Positions 5,078-12,543 of a stretch of DNA of 64,000 nucleotides are shown here, one piece after another. The DNA lies in the sequence record MZ065353.1. One strand, given 5' to 3'. The notes beneath the pieces were generated by a model. It saw nothing but the letters and a program-made list of their open reading frames with translations. It was not told the origin of the DNA and did no database searches. The position numbers and the translations under genes are program-made. Positions within the stretch are counted from its first letter, which is position 1. Each line of letters opens with the position of its first letter. This DNA is from Escherichia virus KFS-EC3.

Positions 5078-5346
5078 TGTTTGTTGTTCACACTATTTAT
5101 GAAAATGAAGGTAATACTACACGTGATTACGGTCACGTAAATCAATTTTTTAGATGCAATCCAGAATTCCGAGCTCAAAAAGACGAACGAATTTTTAAAA
5201 AATGTGTAGAGCAAGGTTTCATTTATATCAAGCACTGGATGCAAGGAAATAAAGTTAGAACTACATATCATAGGTCTTTAACTGAGCTTAATGATGAATT
5301 GATTTATAATAGAGCTGTAAATCAAACTCTGAAGGATGAACAATGA
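5077..5346 (+). CDS. hypothetical protein (position of T4 30.1)
   Basis: 89 aa ORF, start overlaps previous stop. Confidence 0.45.
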   Translation: MFVVHTIYENEGNTTRDYGHVNQFFRCNPEFRAQKDERIFKKCVEQGFIYIKHWMQGNKVRTTYHRSLTELNDELIYNRAVNQTLKDEQ

Positions 5347-6806
5347 TTCTTAAAATTCTGAATGAAATAGCATCTATTGGATCAACTAAGCAGAAGCAAG
5401 CAATTCTTGAAAAGAATAAAGATAATGAATTGCTTAAACGAGTATATCGTCTAACTTATTCTCGTGGGTTACAGTATTATATCAAGAAATGGCCTAAACC
5501 TGGTATTGCTACCCAGAGTTTTGGAATGCTGACTATTACCGATATGCTTGACTTCATTGAATTCACGTTAGCTACTCGGAAATTGACCGGAAATGCTGCA
5601 ATTGAGGAATTGACTGGATATATCACCGATGGTAAAAAGGATGATGTTGAAGTTTTGCGTCGAGTTATGATGCGAGACCTTGAATGCGGTGCTTCAGTAT
5701 CTATTGCAAACAAAGTTTGGCCAGGTTTAATTCCTGAACAACCTCAAATGCTGGCAAGTTCTTATGATGAAAAAGGCATTAGTAAGAATATCAAGTTTCC
5801 AGCTTTTGCGCAGTTAAAAGCAGATGGAGCTCGGTGTTTTGCTGAAGTCCGAGGTGATGAATTAGATGATGTTCGTCTTTTATCACGAGCTGGTAATGAA
5901 TATCTAGGATTAGATCTTCTTAAGGAAGAATTAATCAAAATGACTGCTGAAGCCCGCCAGATTCATCCAGAAGGTGTGTTAATTGATGGCGAATTGGTAT
6001 ACCATGAGCAAGTTAAAAAGGAACCAGAAGGCCTAGATTTTCTTTTTGATGCTTATCCTGAAATTAGTAAAGCTAAAGAATTCGCCGAAGTAGCGGAATC
6101 TCGTACTACTTCTAATGGAATCGCCAATAAATCCTTAAAAGGAACCATTTCTGAAAAAGAAGCTCAATGCATGAAGTTTCAGGTCTGGGATTATGTCCCG
6201 TTGGTAGAAATATACGGTCTTCCGGCGTTTCGTTTAAAATATGATGTACGTTTTTCTAAACTAGAACAAATGACATCAGGATATGATAAAGTAATTTTAA
6301 TTGAAAACCAGGTAGTAAATAACCTAGATGAAGCTAAGGTAATTTATAAAAAGTATATTGACCAAGGTCTTGAAGGTATTATTCTCAAAAATACCGATGG
6401 ATTGTGGGAAAATGCTCGTTCAAAAAATCTCTATAAATTTAAAGAAGTAATTGATGTTGATTTAAAAATTGTAGGAATTTATCCTCACCGTAAAGACCCT
6501 ACTAAAGCAGGTGGATTTATTCTTGAATCAGAGTGTGGAAAAATTAAAGTAAATGCTGGTTCAGGCTTAAAAGATAAAGCCGGTGTAAAATCACATGAAC
6601 TTGACCGTACTCGCATTATGGAAAACCAAAATTATTATATTGGAAAAATTCTAGAGTGCGAATGCAACGGTTGGCTAAAATCTGATGGCCGCACTGATTA
6701 CGTTAAATTATTTCTTCCGATTGCGATTCGTTTACGTGAAGATAAAACTAAAGCTAATACATTCGAGGATGTATTTGGTGATTTTCATGAGGTAACTGGT
6801 CTATGA
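5343..6806 (+). CDS. 30: ATP-dependent DNA ligase
   Basis: 487 aa as T4 gp30; KxDG adenylation motif (LKADGAR). Confidence 0.9.
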   Translation: MILKILNEIASIGSTKQKQAILEKNKDNELLKRVYRLTYSRGLQYYIKKWPKPGIATQSFGMLTITDMLDFIEFTLATRKLTGNAAIEELTGYITDGKKDDVEVLRRVMMRDLECGASVSIANKVWPGLIPEQPQMLASSYDEKGISKNIKFPAFAQLKADGARCFAEVRGDELDDVRLLSRAGNEYLGLDLLKEELIKMTAEARQIHPEGVLIDGELVYHEQVKKEPEGLDFLFDAYPEISKAKEFAEVAESRTTSNGIANKSLKGTISEKEAQCMKFQVWDYVPLVEIYGLPAFRLKYDVRFSKLEQMTSGYDKVILIENQVVNNLDEAKVIYKKYIDQGLEGIILKNTDGLWENARSKNLYKFKEVIDVDLKIVGIYPHRKDPTKAGGFILESECGKIKVNAGSGLKDKAGVKSHELDRTRIMENQNYYIGKILECECNGWLKSDGRTDYVKLFLPIAIRLREDKTKANTFEDVFGDFHEVTGL

Positions 6807-6991
6807 AAGCTTACTTAGAAACAATTGTCGTTGCTCAAAAAGAAGGTGGAGATGTTTCTACTTCTGTATCACAAATCGTTCTCGAATTTGTAGATGCATA
6901 TGCTTATAATAAATTTACAGAAACATTTGATGCCTACGAAAAAGGTCCAAAGTTTGAAATATATCGTACTCTCTTACCACTAGATTATTAA
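6803..6991 (+). CDS. hypothetical small protein
   Basis: 62 aa ORF overlapping ligase stop (ATGA). Confidence 0.4.
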   Translation: MKAYLETIVVAQKEGGDVSTSVSQIVLEFVDAYAYNKFTETFDAYEKGPKFEIYRTLLPLDY

Positions 6992-7006
6992 AGGCCTTCG
7001 GGCCTT
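6991..7006 (+). terminator. UUCG tetraloop terminator hairpin
   Basis: AAGGCC-TTCG-GGCCTT then TAATTTT. Confidence 0.5.
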
Positions 7007-7012
7007 TAATTT

Positions 7013-7020
7013 TATAAATA
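7013..7020 (+). promoter_or_regulatory. T4 late promoter (TATAAATA) upstream of alt-like gene
   Basis: exact TATAAATA 21 bp upstream of the ATG; late expression fits a capsid-packaged protein. Confidence 0.5.
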
Positions 7021-7040
7021 GAATAAACACTAGAGAGGAT

Positions 7041-9137
7041 ATGATGGAACTCATTACAGAATTATTTGACGAAGATACTACTCTTCCGATTACAAACTTA
7101 AATCCAAAGAAGAAAATACCACAAATTTTTTCAGTTCATGTTGATGACGCAATTGAACAACCAGGCTTTCGTTTATGTACCTATACATCTGGAGGTGATA
7201 CTAATCGCGATTTAAAAATGGGCGATAAAATGATGCATATTGTTCCTTTTACATTAACTGCTAAAGGTTCAATTGCTAAATTAAAAGGTCTCGGTCCAAG
7301 CCCAATTAATTACATCAATTCAGTTTTTACTGTTGCGATGCAGACGATGCGTCAGTATAAAATTGATGCCTGTATGCTTCGTATTCTTAAGTCTAAAACT
7401 GCTGGTCAAGCTCGACAAATTCAAGTTATTGCTGATAGACTTATCCGCAGTCGTTCAGGTGGCAGATACGTCCTTCTTAAGAAACTCTGGGATTACGATA
7501 AAAAGTATGCATATATTCTTATACATCGCAAAAATGTATCACTAGAAGACATTCCAGGAGTTCCGGAAATTAGCACCGAGCTCTTTACTAAAGTTGAATC
7601 GAAGGTCGGTGATGTTTATATCAATAAAGATACTGGAGCTCAAGTAACTAAAAATGAGGCAATTGCTGCATCTATTGCGCAAGAAAATGATAAACGTTCT
7701 GACCAAGCTGTAATCGTTAAAGTTAAAATTTCCCGTAGAGCAATTGCACAAAGTCAGTCATTAGAATCTTCTAGATTTGAAAGCGAATTATTCCAGAAGT
7801 ATGAATCTACCGCAGCTAATTTCAATAAACCTGCTACCGCTCCTTTAATTCCCGAAGCAGAAGAAATGAAACTTGGAATTAATTCATTAGCTTCTAAAAC
7901 TAAGGCAGCAAAAATTATTGCCGAAGGAACCACAGATGAACTTCATTATGACTATAAATTCTTTTCAAAAAGTGAGGTTAATGAAGTTTCTGAAAAAATT
8001 AAAGACGTAATTTTTAACGCGATCAAAAATGAACCGACTACTTCAATAAAATGTTTAGAGAAGTATGCAGCAGCTATTAATAAATTCTTTGAAGAATATA
8101 AAGATAATTGGCTTGATAAACATAATAAAACCCGTAAAGGACAGCCAGATGAAGTCTGGGAAGAAATGACTAAAAATTCCTGGAACGCAGCAAAAACTAA
8201 ATTCCTCAAAAGAATGATTTATAGTTTTTCTGGAATTGGTGCAGGTCCAATGATTGATATTACTATTGCCCGTGATGGTTCTAAATATACTCCATCACAA
8301 AAGCGCGGCATTAGAGAGTATTGCGGTTCAGGATATACTGACATCAATAATCTTCTTTTAGGACGCTACAATCCAGAACGATATGATGTAATGAGTGAAA
8401 AAGAAATTGAATCTGCTATAAATAACTTAGATTCAGCTTTTGAAAATGGTGACCGTATACCAGAAGGCATTACAGTTTATCGTGCTCAAAGTATGACTGC
8501 TCCTATATACGAAGCACTAGTTAAAAATAAAGTGTTCTATTTCAGAAATTTTGTATCTACTTCTTTAACTCCTATCATTTTTGGACGTTTTGGAATTACA
8601 CATGCTGGTATTGGTCTTTTAGAACCAGAAGCTCGTAATGAACTGACAGTTGATAAAAATGAAGAAGGAATAACTATTAATCCAAACGAAATAAGAGCGT
8701 ATAAAGAAAATCCTGAATACGTTAAAGTTCAAATAGGATGGGCAATTGATGGAGCTCATAAAGTTAATGTTGTATATCCAGGAAGTCTCGGAATAGCAAC
8801 AGAAGCTGAAGTTATTCTACCACGCGGATTGATGGTCAAAGTTAATAAAATAACTGATGCTTCTAATAATGACGGAACAACATCTAATAATACAAAACTC
8901 ATTCAAGCTGAAGTTATGACTACGGAAGAACTCACCGAATCAGTAATTTATGACGGTGATCGTCTAATGGAAACTGGTGAAGTAGTTGCAATGACAGGTG
9001 ATATTGAAATAGAAGACAGAGTTGACTTTGCATCATTTGTTTCATCAAATGTTAAACAAAAAGTAGAATCATCTCTTGGAATTATTGCGTCTTGCATAGA
9101 TATTACAAACATGCCTTACAAGTTCGTTCAAGGATAA
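7041..9137 (+). CDS. Alt-like ADP-ribosyltransferase, paralog 1
   Basis: 698 aa; N-terminus MELITE; R-S-E type ART signatures YRAQ, FVSTSL, EAEVILPRG. Confidence 0.75.
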   Translation: MMELITELFDEDTTLPITNLNPKKKIPQIFSVHVDDAIEQPGFRLCTYTSGGDTNRDLKMGDKMMHIVPFTLTAKGSIAKLKGLGPSPINYINSVFTVAMQTMRQYKIDACMLRILKSKTAGQARQIQVIADRLIRSRSGGRYVLLKKLWDYDKKYAYILIHRKNVSLEDIPGVPEISTELFTKVESKVGDVYINKDTGAQVTKNEAIAASIAQENDKRSDQAVIVKVKISRRAIAQSQSLESSRFESELFQKYESTAANFNKPATAPLIPEAEEMKLGINSLASKTKAAKIIAEGTTDELHYDYKFFSKSEVNEVSEKIKDVIFNAIKNEPTTSIKCLEKYAAAINKFFEEYKDNWLDKHNKTRKGQPDEVWEEMTKNSWNAAKTKFLKRMIYSFSGIGAGPMIDITIARDGSKYTPSQKRGIREYCGSGYTDINNLLLGRYNPERYDVMSEKEIESAINNLDSAFENGDRIPEGITVYRAQSMTAPIYEALVKNKVFYFRNFVSTSLTPIIFGRFGITHAGIGLLEPEARNELTVDKNEEGITINPNEIRAYKENPEYVKVQIGWAIDGAHKVNVVYPGSLGIATEAEVILPRGLMVKVNKITDASNNDGTTSNNTKLIQAEVMTTEELTESVIYDGDRLMETGEVVAMTGDIEIEDRVDFASFVSSNVKQKVESSLGIIASCIDITNMPYKFVQG

Positions 9138-9140
9138 ATC

Positions 9141-11198
9141 ATGGAACTTATTACAGAATTATTTGACGGCGCTTCGGCGCCGGTTGTTAACTTAAATCCT
9201 AAGCATAAAATACCTCAAATTTTTGCTATTCAAGCCGGTGAAGAAAGCGTGCTTCCTGGATTTAGATTTTGTACATACACCTCTGGCGGTGATACAAATA
9301 AAAACGTTAAGCCAGGCGATAAAATGATGCATATCGTAATGATAGGTGTCAATGAGAAACTATCATTAGTTAAACTTAAAAACTTGGGTGGAAATCCAAT
9401 TGGTGTCATTAATGCGGTTTTTGATACTGCTCTTCAAACAATGAAACAGTATAAAATTGATGCATGCCTATTCCGCGTACTAAAAAGTAAAACAAATGGC
9501 GCAGCTCGTCAAATGCAAGTTATTGCTGACCGTTTAGTACGTACTAAAGGAGCAGGTCGATATGTTCTTTTAAAGGAAATCTGGGATTATGATAAAAAGT
9601 ATGCATATATTATGGTTTACCGTAAAAATGCCAATTTAAAAGACATTCCAGGTGTACCTCCTATTTCAACTGAGTTATTCACAAAAGTTGAATCAAAGGT
9701 TGGTGATGTTTATGTAGATGTTAAAACAGGTAATGCTGTTCCTAAAGCTGTTGCTGTTGCTGCTTCTATTGCTTTAGAAAATGATAAGCGCACGGATCAA
9801 GCTGTTATTCAGAAAACTAAAATTAGTCGTCGATTGGCAGCACAAGCTCAATATTCTACTGTCGATGCTTCGCTTCAGGGTGATAGCTTCGCTGCCAAGA
9901 AATATCAAGAGTTTGAATCTAAAGTTCCGGTATATAAAGCAGAAGGACCAATGAACTCTGGTGTTATTCAGATTGGTTCAAACTTCGGCAAAGGAGCTAT
10001 CGGTGGTATGAGAAGTGCTTCTCGTTTTAAATCTAACGATTATGAACTAGAAAGCTTCCGAAATCATATTGCATTGGCCCATGCACGTTTACGTGATCCG
10101 TCTATCAGACTGCAGAGCGATATAACACATCAAGGTTCTCAAGAATATTTAAAGAATAAAGAATTTTTTGATTATAAAACCGATAAAATTTTGAGCGATC
10201 TCGCTGACATTAATATTTCTAATAGCTTTGATGTTATTAAGAAAATTATCAATGATTTAGTTAAAGGTTCTAAAGCCACACCAGACGAAAAGGTAGCTAT
10301 TATTCAATTTGTCATGAATGGCATTTATAAATTGATTAATGAATCTGCTGCTCAGGCATATGAATACGCAAGCACCGAAGTAACTCCAAAAGGACTGACT
10401 CAGGCTGAGTCTGATGTAATTGAAGATTATTGTGCAGATTCATATGTTGAAATGAACTCGTTCCTCTTGGGTAAACCAGATTCTACCCGTGAAGAATATA
10501 TGGAACGAGCTATTAAACACATCGAGACGCTGGATTCTGCCTTTGCCAAAGGTTCAGTTCTTCCTCCAGGAACTACGCTTTATCGTGGACAAGAAGTTAC
10601 TTTTAAAACTTTACGCCATAATATTGAAAATAAAATGTTCTATTTCAAGAACTTCGTATCAACATCGCTTAAACCAAATATCTTCGGTGAGCATGGTAAA
10701 AACTATATGGCTCTAGATGATTCCGGCGCAGTATTTTCTGGTGAAGGAGAAGGTTCTGTTGATGCTGAAGATTTAATGCATATGGGCAGTCATTCTGCTT
10801 ATGCGAATGAAGATGCTGAAACTAGCGTAGGTATGGTAATAAAAGGAGCTGAGCGAATTAAAGTTATCGTTCCAGGTCATTTATCGGGATTTCCATCAGA
10901 AGCTGAAGTTATTCTACCGCGTGGAATTTTGTTGAAGATTAATAAAGTAAGCACGTACATGATGAAAGAAACTGCTTATAACAAGTATCTAATCGAAGGC
11001 ACAATCGTTCCTCCTTCTGAACAATTAGAAGAATCGGTATATGATGGCGATCATCTAATGGAAACTGGTGAAGTTCGTCCAATGGCTGGGTTTAATCAAT
11101 TCCTTGTAGAAGAATCAAAAGAAGAGGAAAACGAAGTTTCTCAAATCTTGGCTTCTTTGGTTAACATCAACGGAATGTCTAAAAAGTTCAAGATGTAG
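9141..11198 (+). CDS. alt: Alt-like ADP-ribosyltransferase, paralog 2
   Basis: 685 aa (T4 Alt is about 682); N-terminus MELITE; YRGQ, FVSTSL, EAEVILPRG. Confidence 0.8.
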   Translation: MELITELFDGASAPVVNLNPKHKIPQIFAIQAGEESVLPGFRFCTYTSGGDTNKNVKPGDKMMHIVMIGVNEKLSLVKLKNLGGNPIGVINAVFDTALQTMKQYKIDACLFRVLKSKTNGAARQMQVIADRLVRTKGAGRYVLLKEIWDYDKKYAYIMVYRKNANLKDIPGVPPISTELFTKVESKVGDVYVDVKTGNAVPKAVAVAASIALENDKRTDQAVIQKTKISRRLAAQAQYSTVDASLQGDSFAAKKYQEFESKVPVYKAEGPMNSGVIQIGSNFGKGAIGGMRSASRFKSNDYELESFRNHIALAHARLRDPSIRLQSDITHQGSQEYLKNKEFFDYKTDKILSDLADINISNSFDVIKKIINDLVKGSKATPDEKVAIIQFVMNGIYKLINESAAQAYEYASTEVTPKGLTQAESDVIEDYCADSYVEMNSFLLGKPDSTREEYMERAIKHIETLDSAFAKGSVLPPGTTLYRGQEVTFKTLRHNIENKMFYFKNFVSTSLKPNIFGEHGKNYMALDDSGAVFSGEGEGSVDAEDLMHMGSHSAYANEDAETSVGMVIKGAERIKVIVPGHLSGFPSEAEVILPRGILLKINKVSTYMMKETAYNKYLIEGTIVPPSEQLEESVYDGDHLMETGEVRPMAGFNQFLVEESKEEENEVSQILASLVNINGMSKKFKM

Positions 11199-11230
11199 TT
11201 TACAAGTCCCTCGTGTTGTGTTATAGTAAT
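11198..11230 (+). promoter_or_regulatory. T4-type early promoter inside a stem-loop (PeSL-like cassette)
   Basis: GTTTAC, 17 nt, then TTATAGTAAT; flanking inverted repeat CCTCGTGTT/AACATGAGG. Confidence 0.45.
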
Positions 11231-11258
11231 CTTACTGACATAACATGAGGAACACAAA

Positions 11259-11549
11259 ATGAAATCTTCTTTACGCTTTTTAGGTCAAGAACTTGTAGTT
11301 GAAGGCGTTATTCCTGCTGATAACGCTTTTAATGAAGCAGTTTATGATGAATTTATCAAAATTTTTGGAACAGATAAAAAGTTCGGAATTTTTCCTTCTG
11401 AAAATTTTTCAAAGCCAGAACAGACTGAAAGCATTTTCCAAGGTGTAGTAACAGGTAAATTTGAGTCAGAAGCTCCGGTAAAAATTGAAGTTTATATTGA
11501 AGACAGTTTAGTTGCTTCAGTTGCTGCTTTCATTTCATTCCGTAAATAA
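11259..11549 (+). CDS. hypothetical protein
   Basis: 96 aa ORF with GAGGAA RBS. Confidence 0.5.
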   Translation: MKSSLRFLGQELVVEGVIPADNAFNEAVYDEFIKIFGTDKKFGIFPSENFSKPEQTESIFQGVVTGKFESEAPVKIEVYIEDSLVASVAAFISFRK

Positions 11550-11554
11550 AAATA

Positions 11555-11574
11555 TGGGGACCTTTCGGTCCCCA
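11555..11574. terminator. bidirectional terminator hairpin
   Basis: TGGGGACC-TTTC-GGTCCCCA between convergent genes. Confidence 0.55.
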
Positions 11575-11577
11575 TTG

Positions 11578-12543
11578 TTATATTGCTCCTAATATTTTAC
11601 TTTGCGAATTGACAATTCCTGTCATAGTATTAATGTTTGAAATGCTTCCAGCAGTTCCCCCTAATCTACTAAGTCGTGAAAGCGAATTAGATAATCCAGT
11701 AACACCTCCACTATTTCCGAGAACGCTTTGAATGCCATTTATAGCAGCAGATTCAAGCCACTCAAGCGCAGCTTGTCTATCAACCGACCCGGCCTGCATG
11801 ACTCTATACGCAAAAGTAACATCAAATGTAGTTATTTGGTTATCTCCATCATATGATAACTCAGGAGCGCTCACTGACACTGGAATGCATCCGGTGAACA
11901 TCACCGCAGTATGAGGTAATCCATTACGAGCATGAAGATTAACCTGAATATCTGCCTCGACATCTTGCGGCAAAGCACGCAGTCCAGTTACTGGGTCTTG
12001 AACAGCGTTAACCCAGTCTTGCATTGCACGATAGTTACAAGCTTCTGAATCCATTCTAAATGAAATAACCAAAGGGTCTAATTCTCTCCCAGTTATACGA
12101 ATATTAGGAGAGTTATAATTCCAGTCAGTTTCATAGGATAATCTATTCTCTGGCATTTTTACAGAATATATCATCAATCCAGATGAGTTATATGCCATAT
12201 TAAAGAAGTCAATTAAATATGTACCAACTGTAAATGAGCCCAATAAACTTTGAACTGTACGTTGACTCATGGCACCAATAAGATATTTACTAACCCCTGA
12301 TTTTCTTATCAGTTTTTGTGTGCCAGCAGTAATTAGCGTGGTAATTCCCTGATTAATATCGCCTTGAGACAATCCTAACCAGTCTGAATTTAGACCCAAG
12401 TTATTATAAGAAAAGTTGCTAATTGAACTTATCAACGAAGAGCTTTTAGTTGATGGAGTTGTCGCAAAAACGCAGCTAAACATATTATTACGCTGGAAAT
12501 CTGCGTTTATTGCTTGATTATTAAATTCCTCTAAAGAATACAT
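11578..12543 (-). CDS. 54: baseplate tail-tube initiator gp54
   Basis: 321 aa; length and order as T4. Confidence 0.8.
   Translation of the reverse strand: MYSLEEFNNQAINADFQRNNMFSCVFATTPSTKSSSLISSISNFSYNNLGLNSDWLGLSQGDINQGITTLITAGTQKLIRKSGVSKYLIGAMSQRTVQSLLGSFTVGTYLIDFFNMAYNSSGLMIYSVKMPENRLSYETDWNYNSPNIRITGRELDPLVISFRMDSEACNYRAMQDWVNAVQDPVTGLRALPQDVEADIQVNLHARNGLPHTAVMFTGCIPVSVSAPELSYDGDNQITTFDVTFAYRVMQAGSVDRQAALEWLESAAINGIQSVLGNSGGVTGLSNSLSRLSRLGGTAGSISNINTMTGIVNSQSKILGAI

Follow-up and report, generated by a model that had tools for sequence, protein, structure and literature searches.

Organization of the alt locus

We analysed a 64,000-nt stretch of the genome record of Escherichia virus KFS-EC3 (MZ065353.1), hereafter the window, on whose numbering all locus positions are given. 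Between the DNA ligase gene (gene 30) and the baseplate gene 54 it carries two consecutive open reading frames (ORFs) related to alt, the ADP-ribosyltransferase (ART) gene of bacteriophage T4; we call them copy 1 and copy 2 (Table 1). This is the standard two-gene alt cassette of Tequatrovirus. An earlier note on this DNA, made from its sequence, had described the two ORFs as tandem, diverged Alt-type genes of 698 and 685 amino acids (aa), and the description is borne out: ORFs of these lengths lie at the locus, their products are 41% identical over the full length (BLASTP E-value 5e-156), and both match the ART family PF03496. For copy 1 the second of two adjacent ATG codons, at 7044, is better spaced from the GAGAGGA ribosome-binding site than the first, at 7041, and it is also the start annotated in RefSeq relatives (MELITE...).

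A T4-type late promoter core, TATAAATA, precedes copy 1 and fits a packaged enzyme, as had been proposed; its distance had been given as 21 bp, and the actual values are 20 nt before ATG 7041 and 23 nt before ATG 7044. The motif occurs 23 times within the window, against 8.9 occurrences expected by chance. The two ORFs are separated by 3 nt, and a TATAAATA motif scan found no late promoter between them, from which we infer that copy 1 and copy 2 are co-transcribed from the promoter at 7013-7020. Another exact TATAAATA is present on the + strand at 8417-8424, within copy 1 and ~720 nt upstream of copy 2; this occurrence may be fortuitous or mark an internal late promoter.

Table 1. Features of the alt locus and its neighbourhood in the window
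Feature	Position	Strand	Remark
DNA ligase gp30 (gene 30)	5343-6806	+	
62-aa ORF, homolog of T4 alt.1	6803-6991	+	Pfam Phage_blade; upstream neighbour, outside the ART pair
Terminator-like hairpin AAAGGCC-TTCG-GGCCTTT, then AATTTTAT	6990-7007	+	found by reading the sequence
T4-type late promoter core TATAAATA	7013-7020	+	
Ribosome-binding site of copy 1, GAGAGGA	7033-7039		
alt copy 1, 697 aa	7044-9137	+	698 aa (start MMELITE) if read from ATG 7041
Copy 1 N-terminal alpha/beta domain, aa 1-235	7044-7748	+	start MELITE|LFD (putative cleavage site at the bar)
Copy 1 central all-helical region, aa 240-410	7761-8273	+	
Copy 1 ART domain, aa 411-625	8274-8918	+	
Copy 1 catalytic R480	8481-8483		
Copy 1 catalytic S505-T-S507	8556-8564		
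Copy 1 catalytic E587-A-E589	8802-8810		
Shine-Dalgarno sequence of copy 2, AAGGA	9130-9134	+	within the final codons of copy 1
alt copy 2, 685 aa	9141-11198	+	
A5 run	9300-9304	+	T4 has A4
9-bp direct repeat CTAAAAAGT, left copy	9480-9488	+	
Copy 2 ART domain, about aa 411-625	10371-11015	+	
Copy 2 catalytic R482	10584-10586		
Copy 2 catalytic S507-T-S509	10659-10667		
Copy 2 catalytic E587-A-E589	10899-10907		
9-bp direct repeat CTAAAAAGT, right copy	11179-11187	+	
96-aa ORF, homolog of T4 alt.-3	11259-11549	+	DUF5498; downstream neighbour
Terminator-like hairpin	11554-11575	.	bidirectional; between the alt.-3 homolog and convergent gene 54

Sequence comparison of the two copies

The similarity between copy 1 and copy 2 is distributed very unevenly. 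It is highest in the N-terminal domain (residues 1-235, 55-78% identity), falls to 7-20% in the centre (residues 240-410), recovers to 40-50% in the ART core (residues 430-530), drops again to 10-15% in an insert (residues 511-566) and reaches 25-50% in the end of the ART domain and the C-terminal tail (residues 586-685). When the centres were compared alone, BLASTP detected no similarity (E-value 1), and profile-profile comparison of type-specific alignments with hhalign gave an E-value of 0.07 and a probability of 0.8%, in agreement with the earlier impression that the central parts read as different sequence. Both centres do match the corresponding columns of the phrog_802 profile; since that profile was built from both types, we discount these matches as evidence of homology. 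The centres are alike in length (173 and 176 aa) and in their predicted helix patterns. They may have diverged until no similarity was left, or a replacement may have taken place.

Profile searches identified the ART domain in both proteins, with PF03496 (ADPrib_exo_Tox) scores of 129 bits for copy 1 (E-value 1.8e-37) and 72.8 bits for copy 2 (E-value 3.1e-20), both above the gathering cut-off of 23.4 bits. Matches to the Alt-like family phrog_802 span residues 1-696 in copy 1 (905 bits) and 1-685 in copy 2 (850 bits), and NCBIfam has no model that matches either copy. On alignment, the catalytic Arg and Glu residues are kept in both copies; the R, S-T-S and E-x-E motifs are invariant across a 21-sequence family alignment and align with YR and E-Y-E in CdtA, an enzyme of solved structure. 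AlphaFold models of the two proteins, built from one mixed alignment, have a mean predicted local distance difference test score (pLDDT) of 76 for copy 1 and 74 for copy 2 and agree in architecture: an N-terminal alpha/beta domain is followed by an all-helical centre, the ART domain and a disordered tail. Foldseek comparison of these predicted models with the PDB returned Vis, C3, CDTa, iota and VIP2 toxins with E-values between 1e-7 and 9e-9, at target-normalised template modelling (TM) scores of at most 0.67. The fold searches matched the ART domain and found nothing for the N-terminal or central regions. Both copies are thus predicted to possess a C3/CDTa-like ART fold, and the sequence data support their identification as paralogous Alt-type ADP-ribosyltransferases with intact catalytic residues. 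The E-x-E motif is typical of arginine-specific ARTs, such as the C2/iota-type toxins, and because of it both copies are likely to be arginine-specific as well.

In both copies the I-T-E of the N-terminal MELITE conforms to (L/I)-x-E, the cleavage motif of the prohead protease gp21, which suggests a cleavage site after MELITE (MELITE|LFD). The N-terminal domain is presumed to be a head-incorporation module. A second Pfam family, PF26846, which precomputed annotations assign to all full-length Alt relatives, may describe this domain.

Towards the C-terminus both proteins contain the motif Y-D-G-D-x-L-M-E-T-G-E, at 8949-8981 in copy 1 (aa 636-646) and at 11040-11072 in copy 2 (aa 634-644), in which Y, D-G-D, E and G-E are invariant in the 21-sequence family alignment. 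The confidence of the models drops under 50 close to the motif, immediately ahead of it in copy 2 and a little beyond it in copy 1. The L-M-E within the motif fits the (L/I)-x-E consensus of gp21, so it could be a candidate C-terminal processing site.

The remnant of copy 2 in bacteriophage T4

T4 gpAlt (NP_049811, 682 aa) is encoded at the same position as copy 1, between gene 30/alt.1 and gene 54, and it has in common with both window proteins the three-part architecture, the MELITELFD start, the R/S-T-S/E-x-E motifs and the YDGDxLMETGE tail. Over its whole length copy 2 shares 41% identity with T4 Alt. Copy 1 is 88-100% identical to it in residues 1-240 and from residue 600 to the end, and much less so in between (12-30% in the centre, 55-68% in the ART core); by domain the values are 99% for the N-terminal domain, 30% for the centre and 65% for the ART domain. 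At the DNA level copy 1 and T4 alt are 94% identical up to position 7850; no match is detectable between 7850 and 8280, and beyond that the identity is about 80%. The ART domain of copy 1 is closer to that of copy 1 from Dhakavirus (83% amino-acid identity) than to that of T4 Alt (65%). Copy 1, the positional ortholog of T4 alt, is thus a mosaic allele.

The T4 interval contains, besides alt, two small ORFs, alt.-1 and alt.-2, which the T4 GenBank record treats as a duplicated initial part of alt. Together, their products (NP_049810 and NP_049809) are near-identical to codons 1-117 (~117) of window copy 2, and the PHROG families derived from alt.-1 and alt.-2 match copy 2 (138 and 131 bits) better than copy 1 (78 and 70 bits). 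Two lesions separate the T4 sequence from an intact gene. Loss of 1 nt in the A5 run (Table 1) causes a frameshift, which splits the remnant into alt.-1 and alt.-2; in addition, T4 lacks the 1,699 bp that lie exactly between the two CTAAAAAGT repeats, with the junction at about 5105-5113 of the T4 stretch L001. Judged by sequence, alt.-1 and alt.-2 represent a truncated full-length paralog, unlike the partial duplication of the GenBank note, and the copy 2 gene is dead in T4 and intact in the window. The statement of the earlier note that T4 carries a single alt gene does not hold in this form, since alt.-1/alt.-2 are what is left of copy 2 after the frameshift and the deletion. The two-gene state is ancestral, and the single gene of T4 is derived.

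Distribution of the two-gene locus

A megablast search with positions 6800-11600 returned 542 phage records, 356 of which match over 80% or more of the query and are in most cases 95-99% identical to it; many of the matched records already annotate two Alt-like ADP-ribosyltransferases ("Alt-like ... (x2)"). In tblastn searches, about 401 records contain copy 2 at an amino-acid identity of at least 90%, and it is 95-99.9% conserved across about 400 genomes. The window allele of copy 1 reaches at least 90% identity in about 317 records, while a 60-80% form, the range into which T4's own Alt falls relative to window copy 1, occurs in 214. Protein clusters at 90% identity comprise 772 members for copy 2 and 641 for copy 1. 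A probe for the T4-type deletion junction is contiguous in 91 records, non-T4 isolates included, and in RPN226 this junction is combined with the window-type copy 1 allele. The pair is intact in about four-fifths of the records with the locus; the remaining one-fifth or so, to which T4 belongs, carry the deletion, so the two-gene state is that of the majority of sequenced Tequatrovirus genomes. With 356 whole-locus records and ~401 with copy 2, the pair is common across T4-like genomes and the novelty implied in the earlier note is not sustained. The arrangement is already known and commonly annotated, and the duplication has been noted both in the T4 GenBank record and in the literature: Nolan et al. 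2006 (PMC1524935) list alt paralogs in T4, RB49 and 44RR.

Beyond Tequatrovirus, tandem Alt pairs are found at the same position in Dhakavirus dhaeg (686 and 707 aa), Gaprivervirus SP18 (alta/altb) and an Aeromonas Biquartavirus. The window pair itself occupies the genomic position typical of the Alt family, flanked by gene 30/alt.1 on one side and alt.-3/gene 54 on the other, and is encoded on the opposite strand from the baseplate genes. In Aeromonas phage avDM10-HWA (L007, 3131-7920), four places match copy 2 in tblastn searches; the fetched stretch contains two full-length Alt-like genes (639 and 640 aa) and, just upstream, a 294-aa ORF.

Proposed function of the cassette

T4 gpAlt is a non-essential core component present in about 40 copies per head (PMC9958956, PMC5512222). 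Its N-terminus is trimmed by gp21 (PMC9958956), and the protein enters the host by injection along with the DNA and ADP-ribosylates host proteins, RNA polymerase among them (PMC9958956, PMC5512222). Both window proteins retain every sequence feature of T4 gpAlt. Based on this analogy, we propose that the two alt genes would be expressed late from one transcript starting at TATAAATA 7013-7020, that the N-terminal domain would direct both products into the prohead core, where gp21 would trim them after MELITE, and that both would be packaged in the head and injected with the DNA. At the very start of infection, the two enzymes would transfer single ADP-ribose units from nicotinamide adenine dinucleotide (NAD+) to arginine residues of host proteins. 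Specificity is likely to be determined by the central helices and by the insert that separates S-T-S from E-x-E and lies by the substrate-recognition loop; since the centres and the insert next to E-x-E differ completely between the copies, the two enzymes probably act on different host targets, which we consider a reasonable inference. The pair is ancestral, and T4 has lost most of copy 2 by the frameshift and the deletion between the 9-bp repeats. To this reading as a whole, a standard cassette for two late, packaged and injected arginine ADP-ribosyltransferases with different targets, we assign a probability of roughly 0.8.

Several points weigh against it. The entire basis for co-transcription is the absence of a second TATAAATA between the ORFs and the 3-nt gap. 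The like architectures of the two models are not independent evidence, as the models share one mixed alignment. Packaging and injection are extrapolated from T4 gpAlt, and so, for copy 2 in particular, are processing and enzymatic activity; in the literature that we searched, we found no functional study of copy 2. The central regions might also be irrelevant to specificity.

Age of the duplication, recombination and selection

Between the N-terminal domains of the two window copies the proportion of synonymous differences (pS) is 0.63, corresponding to a Jukes-Cantor (JC)-corrected synonymous divergence (dS) of about 1.4, and the duplication is therefore old. Recent gene conversion was considered separately as the source of the N-terminal similarity and is ruled out by the same pS. 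Domain-wise identities reveal two different groupings (Table 2): the centre and the ART domain group by gene position, the N-terminal domains by genome.

Table 2. Amino-acid identity by domain between tandem and positional counterparts
Comparison	N-terminal	Centre	ART
Window copy 1 vs window copy 2	67%	15%	36%
dhaeg copy 1 vs dhaeg copy 2	65%	12%	36%
Aeromonas copy 1 vs copy 2	57%	14%	33%
Window copy 1 vs dhaeg copy 1	46%	64%	83%
Window copy 2 vs dhaeg copy 2	44%	45%	58%

This split fits an old duplication followed by co-evolution, or older conversion, of the N-terminal domains, or else by an exchange of effector modules between genera. In the latter case the differences between the copies, and between alleles of copy 1, would have arisen mainly by horizontal transfer of centre/ART modules onto a conserved, phage-specific N-terminal packaging domain. 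Such exchange would account for the greater similarity of N-terminal domains within a genome than between the positional counterparts of the window and dhaeg, for the affinity of the copy 1 ART domain to dhaeg rather than to T4, and for the break in the DNA match with T4 at 7850-8280. Recombination within the N-terminal domain does occur, as seen in phage SCS4 (vB_EcoM_SCS4, ON506924; L003, 3501-5561), where a single chimeric alt switches from copy 1 to copy 2 sequence after the first ~450 nt. The crossover point coincides with the longest stretch of identity shared by the paralogs, 21 nt (GATAAAAAGTATGCATATATT) encoding DKKYAYI, and the chimera looks like the product of unequal recombination between the tandem copies. 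On the other hand, older gene conversion of N-terminal domains within each genome could produce the same pattern as module exchange, and the GC content is uniform across the locus (0.34-0.38), thus giving no hint of recent foreign insertion. We regard predominant module exchange as possible, with the odds somewhat against it; it adds to our preferred explanation of an ancestral two-enzyme cassette and does not replace it.

A broader and tentative proposal, which we rate a little higher but still short of an even chance, is that the alt locus is a two-slot cassette for injected effectors, in which a phage-specific N-terminal packaging domain is combined with exchangeable centre/ART modules, and that copy 2 has a target of its own (e.g. 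a defence or translation factor), missed because the biology of Alt has been studied mainly in T4.

Both copies are under strong purifying selection: the ratio of nonsynonymous to synonymous divergence (dN/dS) is 0.02-0.03 for copy 2 and 0.034 for copy 1, and the comparison contains no nonsynonymous change in either ART domain. This bears on the question whether both enzymes act on the same targets, so that the second gene would merely increase the dose or robustness of the modification of the RNA polymerase alpha subunit. The catalytic motifs, the E-x-E signature and the fold that the copies have in common are compatible with such a role, yet the very low identity of the centres and inserts between the copies, combined with strong purifying selection within each ortholog group, fits distinct conserved specificities, and we consider identical targets unlikely. 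It is far less probable still that copy 2 serves no separate function and is a redundant copy or one in decay. Its loss has left T4 and about 90 other records viable, alt itself is non-essential (PMC9958956) and, as a passage of PMC9391042 states with reference to Wu et al. 1991, it has been deleted in a T4 lineage; a gene without function would, however, hardly display the dN/dS of copy 2 and its unchanged ART domain, nor would its ORF be intact, with invariant catalytic residues, in about 400 records. Finally, a recent duplication specific to the KFS-EC3 lineage followed by rapid divergence, the implicit view of the earlier note, is suggested by the tandem order, the common MELITELFD and the 67% identity of the N-terminal domains, but it is refuted by pS 0.63, by the conservation of copy 2 across genomes, by its remnant in T4 and by the Dhakavirus counterparts of each copy, so that of the proposed duplication and divergence the paralogy and the divergence stand and the recency falls.

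Related systems

Annotated parallels to the window pair are dhaeg_62/63 of Dhakavirus, alta/altb of SP18 and ORF187c/188c of 44RR (PMC1524935), all of them adjacent Alt genes between the ligase gene and gene 54. The dhaeg genes pair by position with the window copies in the centre and ART regions, the N-terminal domains of these Straboviridae pairs are 37-46% identical to those of the window, and SP18 alta is shorter (624 aa).

The Mod proteins are about 200 aa long, are made early, are not packaged, and lack the N-terminal and central regions. Like the window pair, T4 ModA and ModB are adjacent paralogous arginine ARTs of a T-even genome from the Alt/VIP2 R-S-E clade, and they have been assigned to the same clade as Alt (PMC5512222). 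The toxins C3, Vis, iota Ia, CDTa and VIP2 have the ART fold and the R/S-T-S/E-x-E active site in common with the window copies, at 15-22% identity; these, however, are bacterial exotoxins that act on eukaryotic targets, and they possess nothing like the Alt N-terminal domain. A functional analogy can be drawn with the T4 internal proteins Ip1, Ip2 and Ip3, which are non-essential, packaged in the head, injected and equipped with an N-terminal targeting/cleavage signal, each paralog acting on another host factor; the three proteins each block a different GmrSD variant (PMC12373910). Packaged proteins of such phages thus do diversify target by target. The analogy with Alt is limited to function, as the internal proteins are small, non-enzymatic inhibitors of unrelated sequence.

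As a sequence feature the gene pair is ordinary and is present in hundreds of public T4-like genomes. T4, however, is a natural knockout of the second, predicted packaged, ADP-ribosyltransferase, and because T4 lacks it, copy 2 has apparently gone uncharacterised. The locus also exemplifies the diversification of injected effectors, with its conserved packaging domain, its hypervariable centre, the deletion between 9-bp repeats and the SCS4 chimera.

Flanking genes and regulatory elements

The 62-aa alt.1 homolog upstream of the ART pair overlaps the end of DNA ligase gene 30. The hairpin that follows it at 6990-7007 does not appear in the list of the consensus terminator scan; it is probably the end point of early or middle transcripts from gene 30. 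Downstream, genes 54, 48 and 29 lie on the - strand and converge on the alt locus. A search of Rfam detected no RNA family within 6500-11800. Just past the stop codon of copy 2 and upstream of the alt.-3 homolog, at 11199-11227, there is a sigma-70/T4-early-like promoter (TTTACA-17 nt-TATAGT, with extended TG), which is identical in T4.

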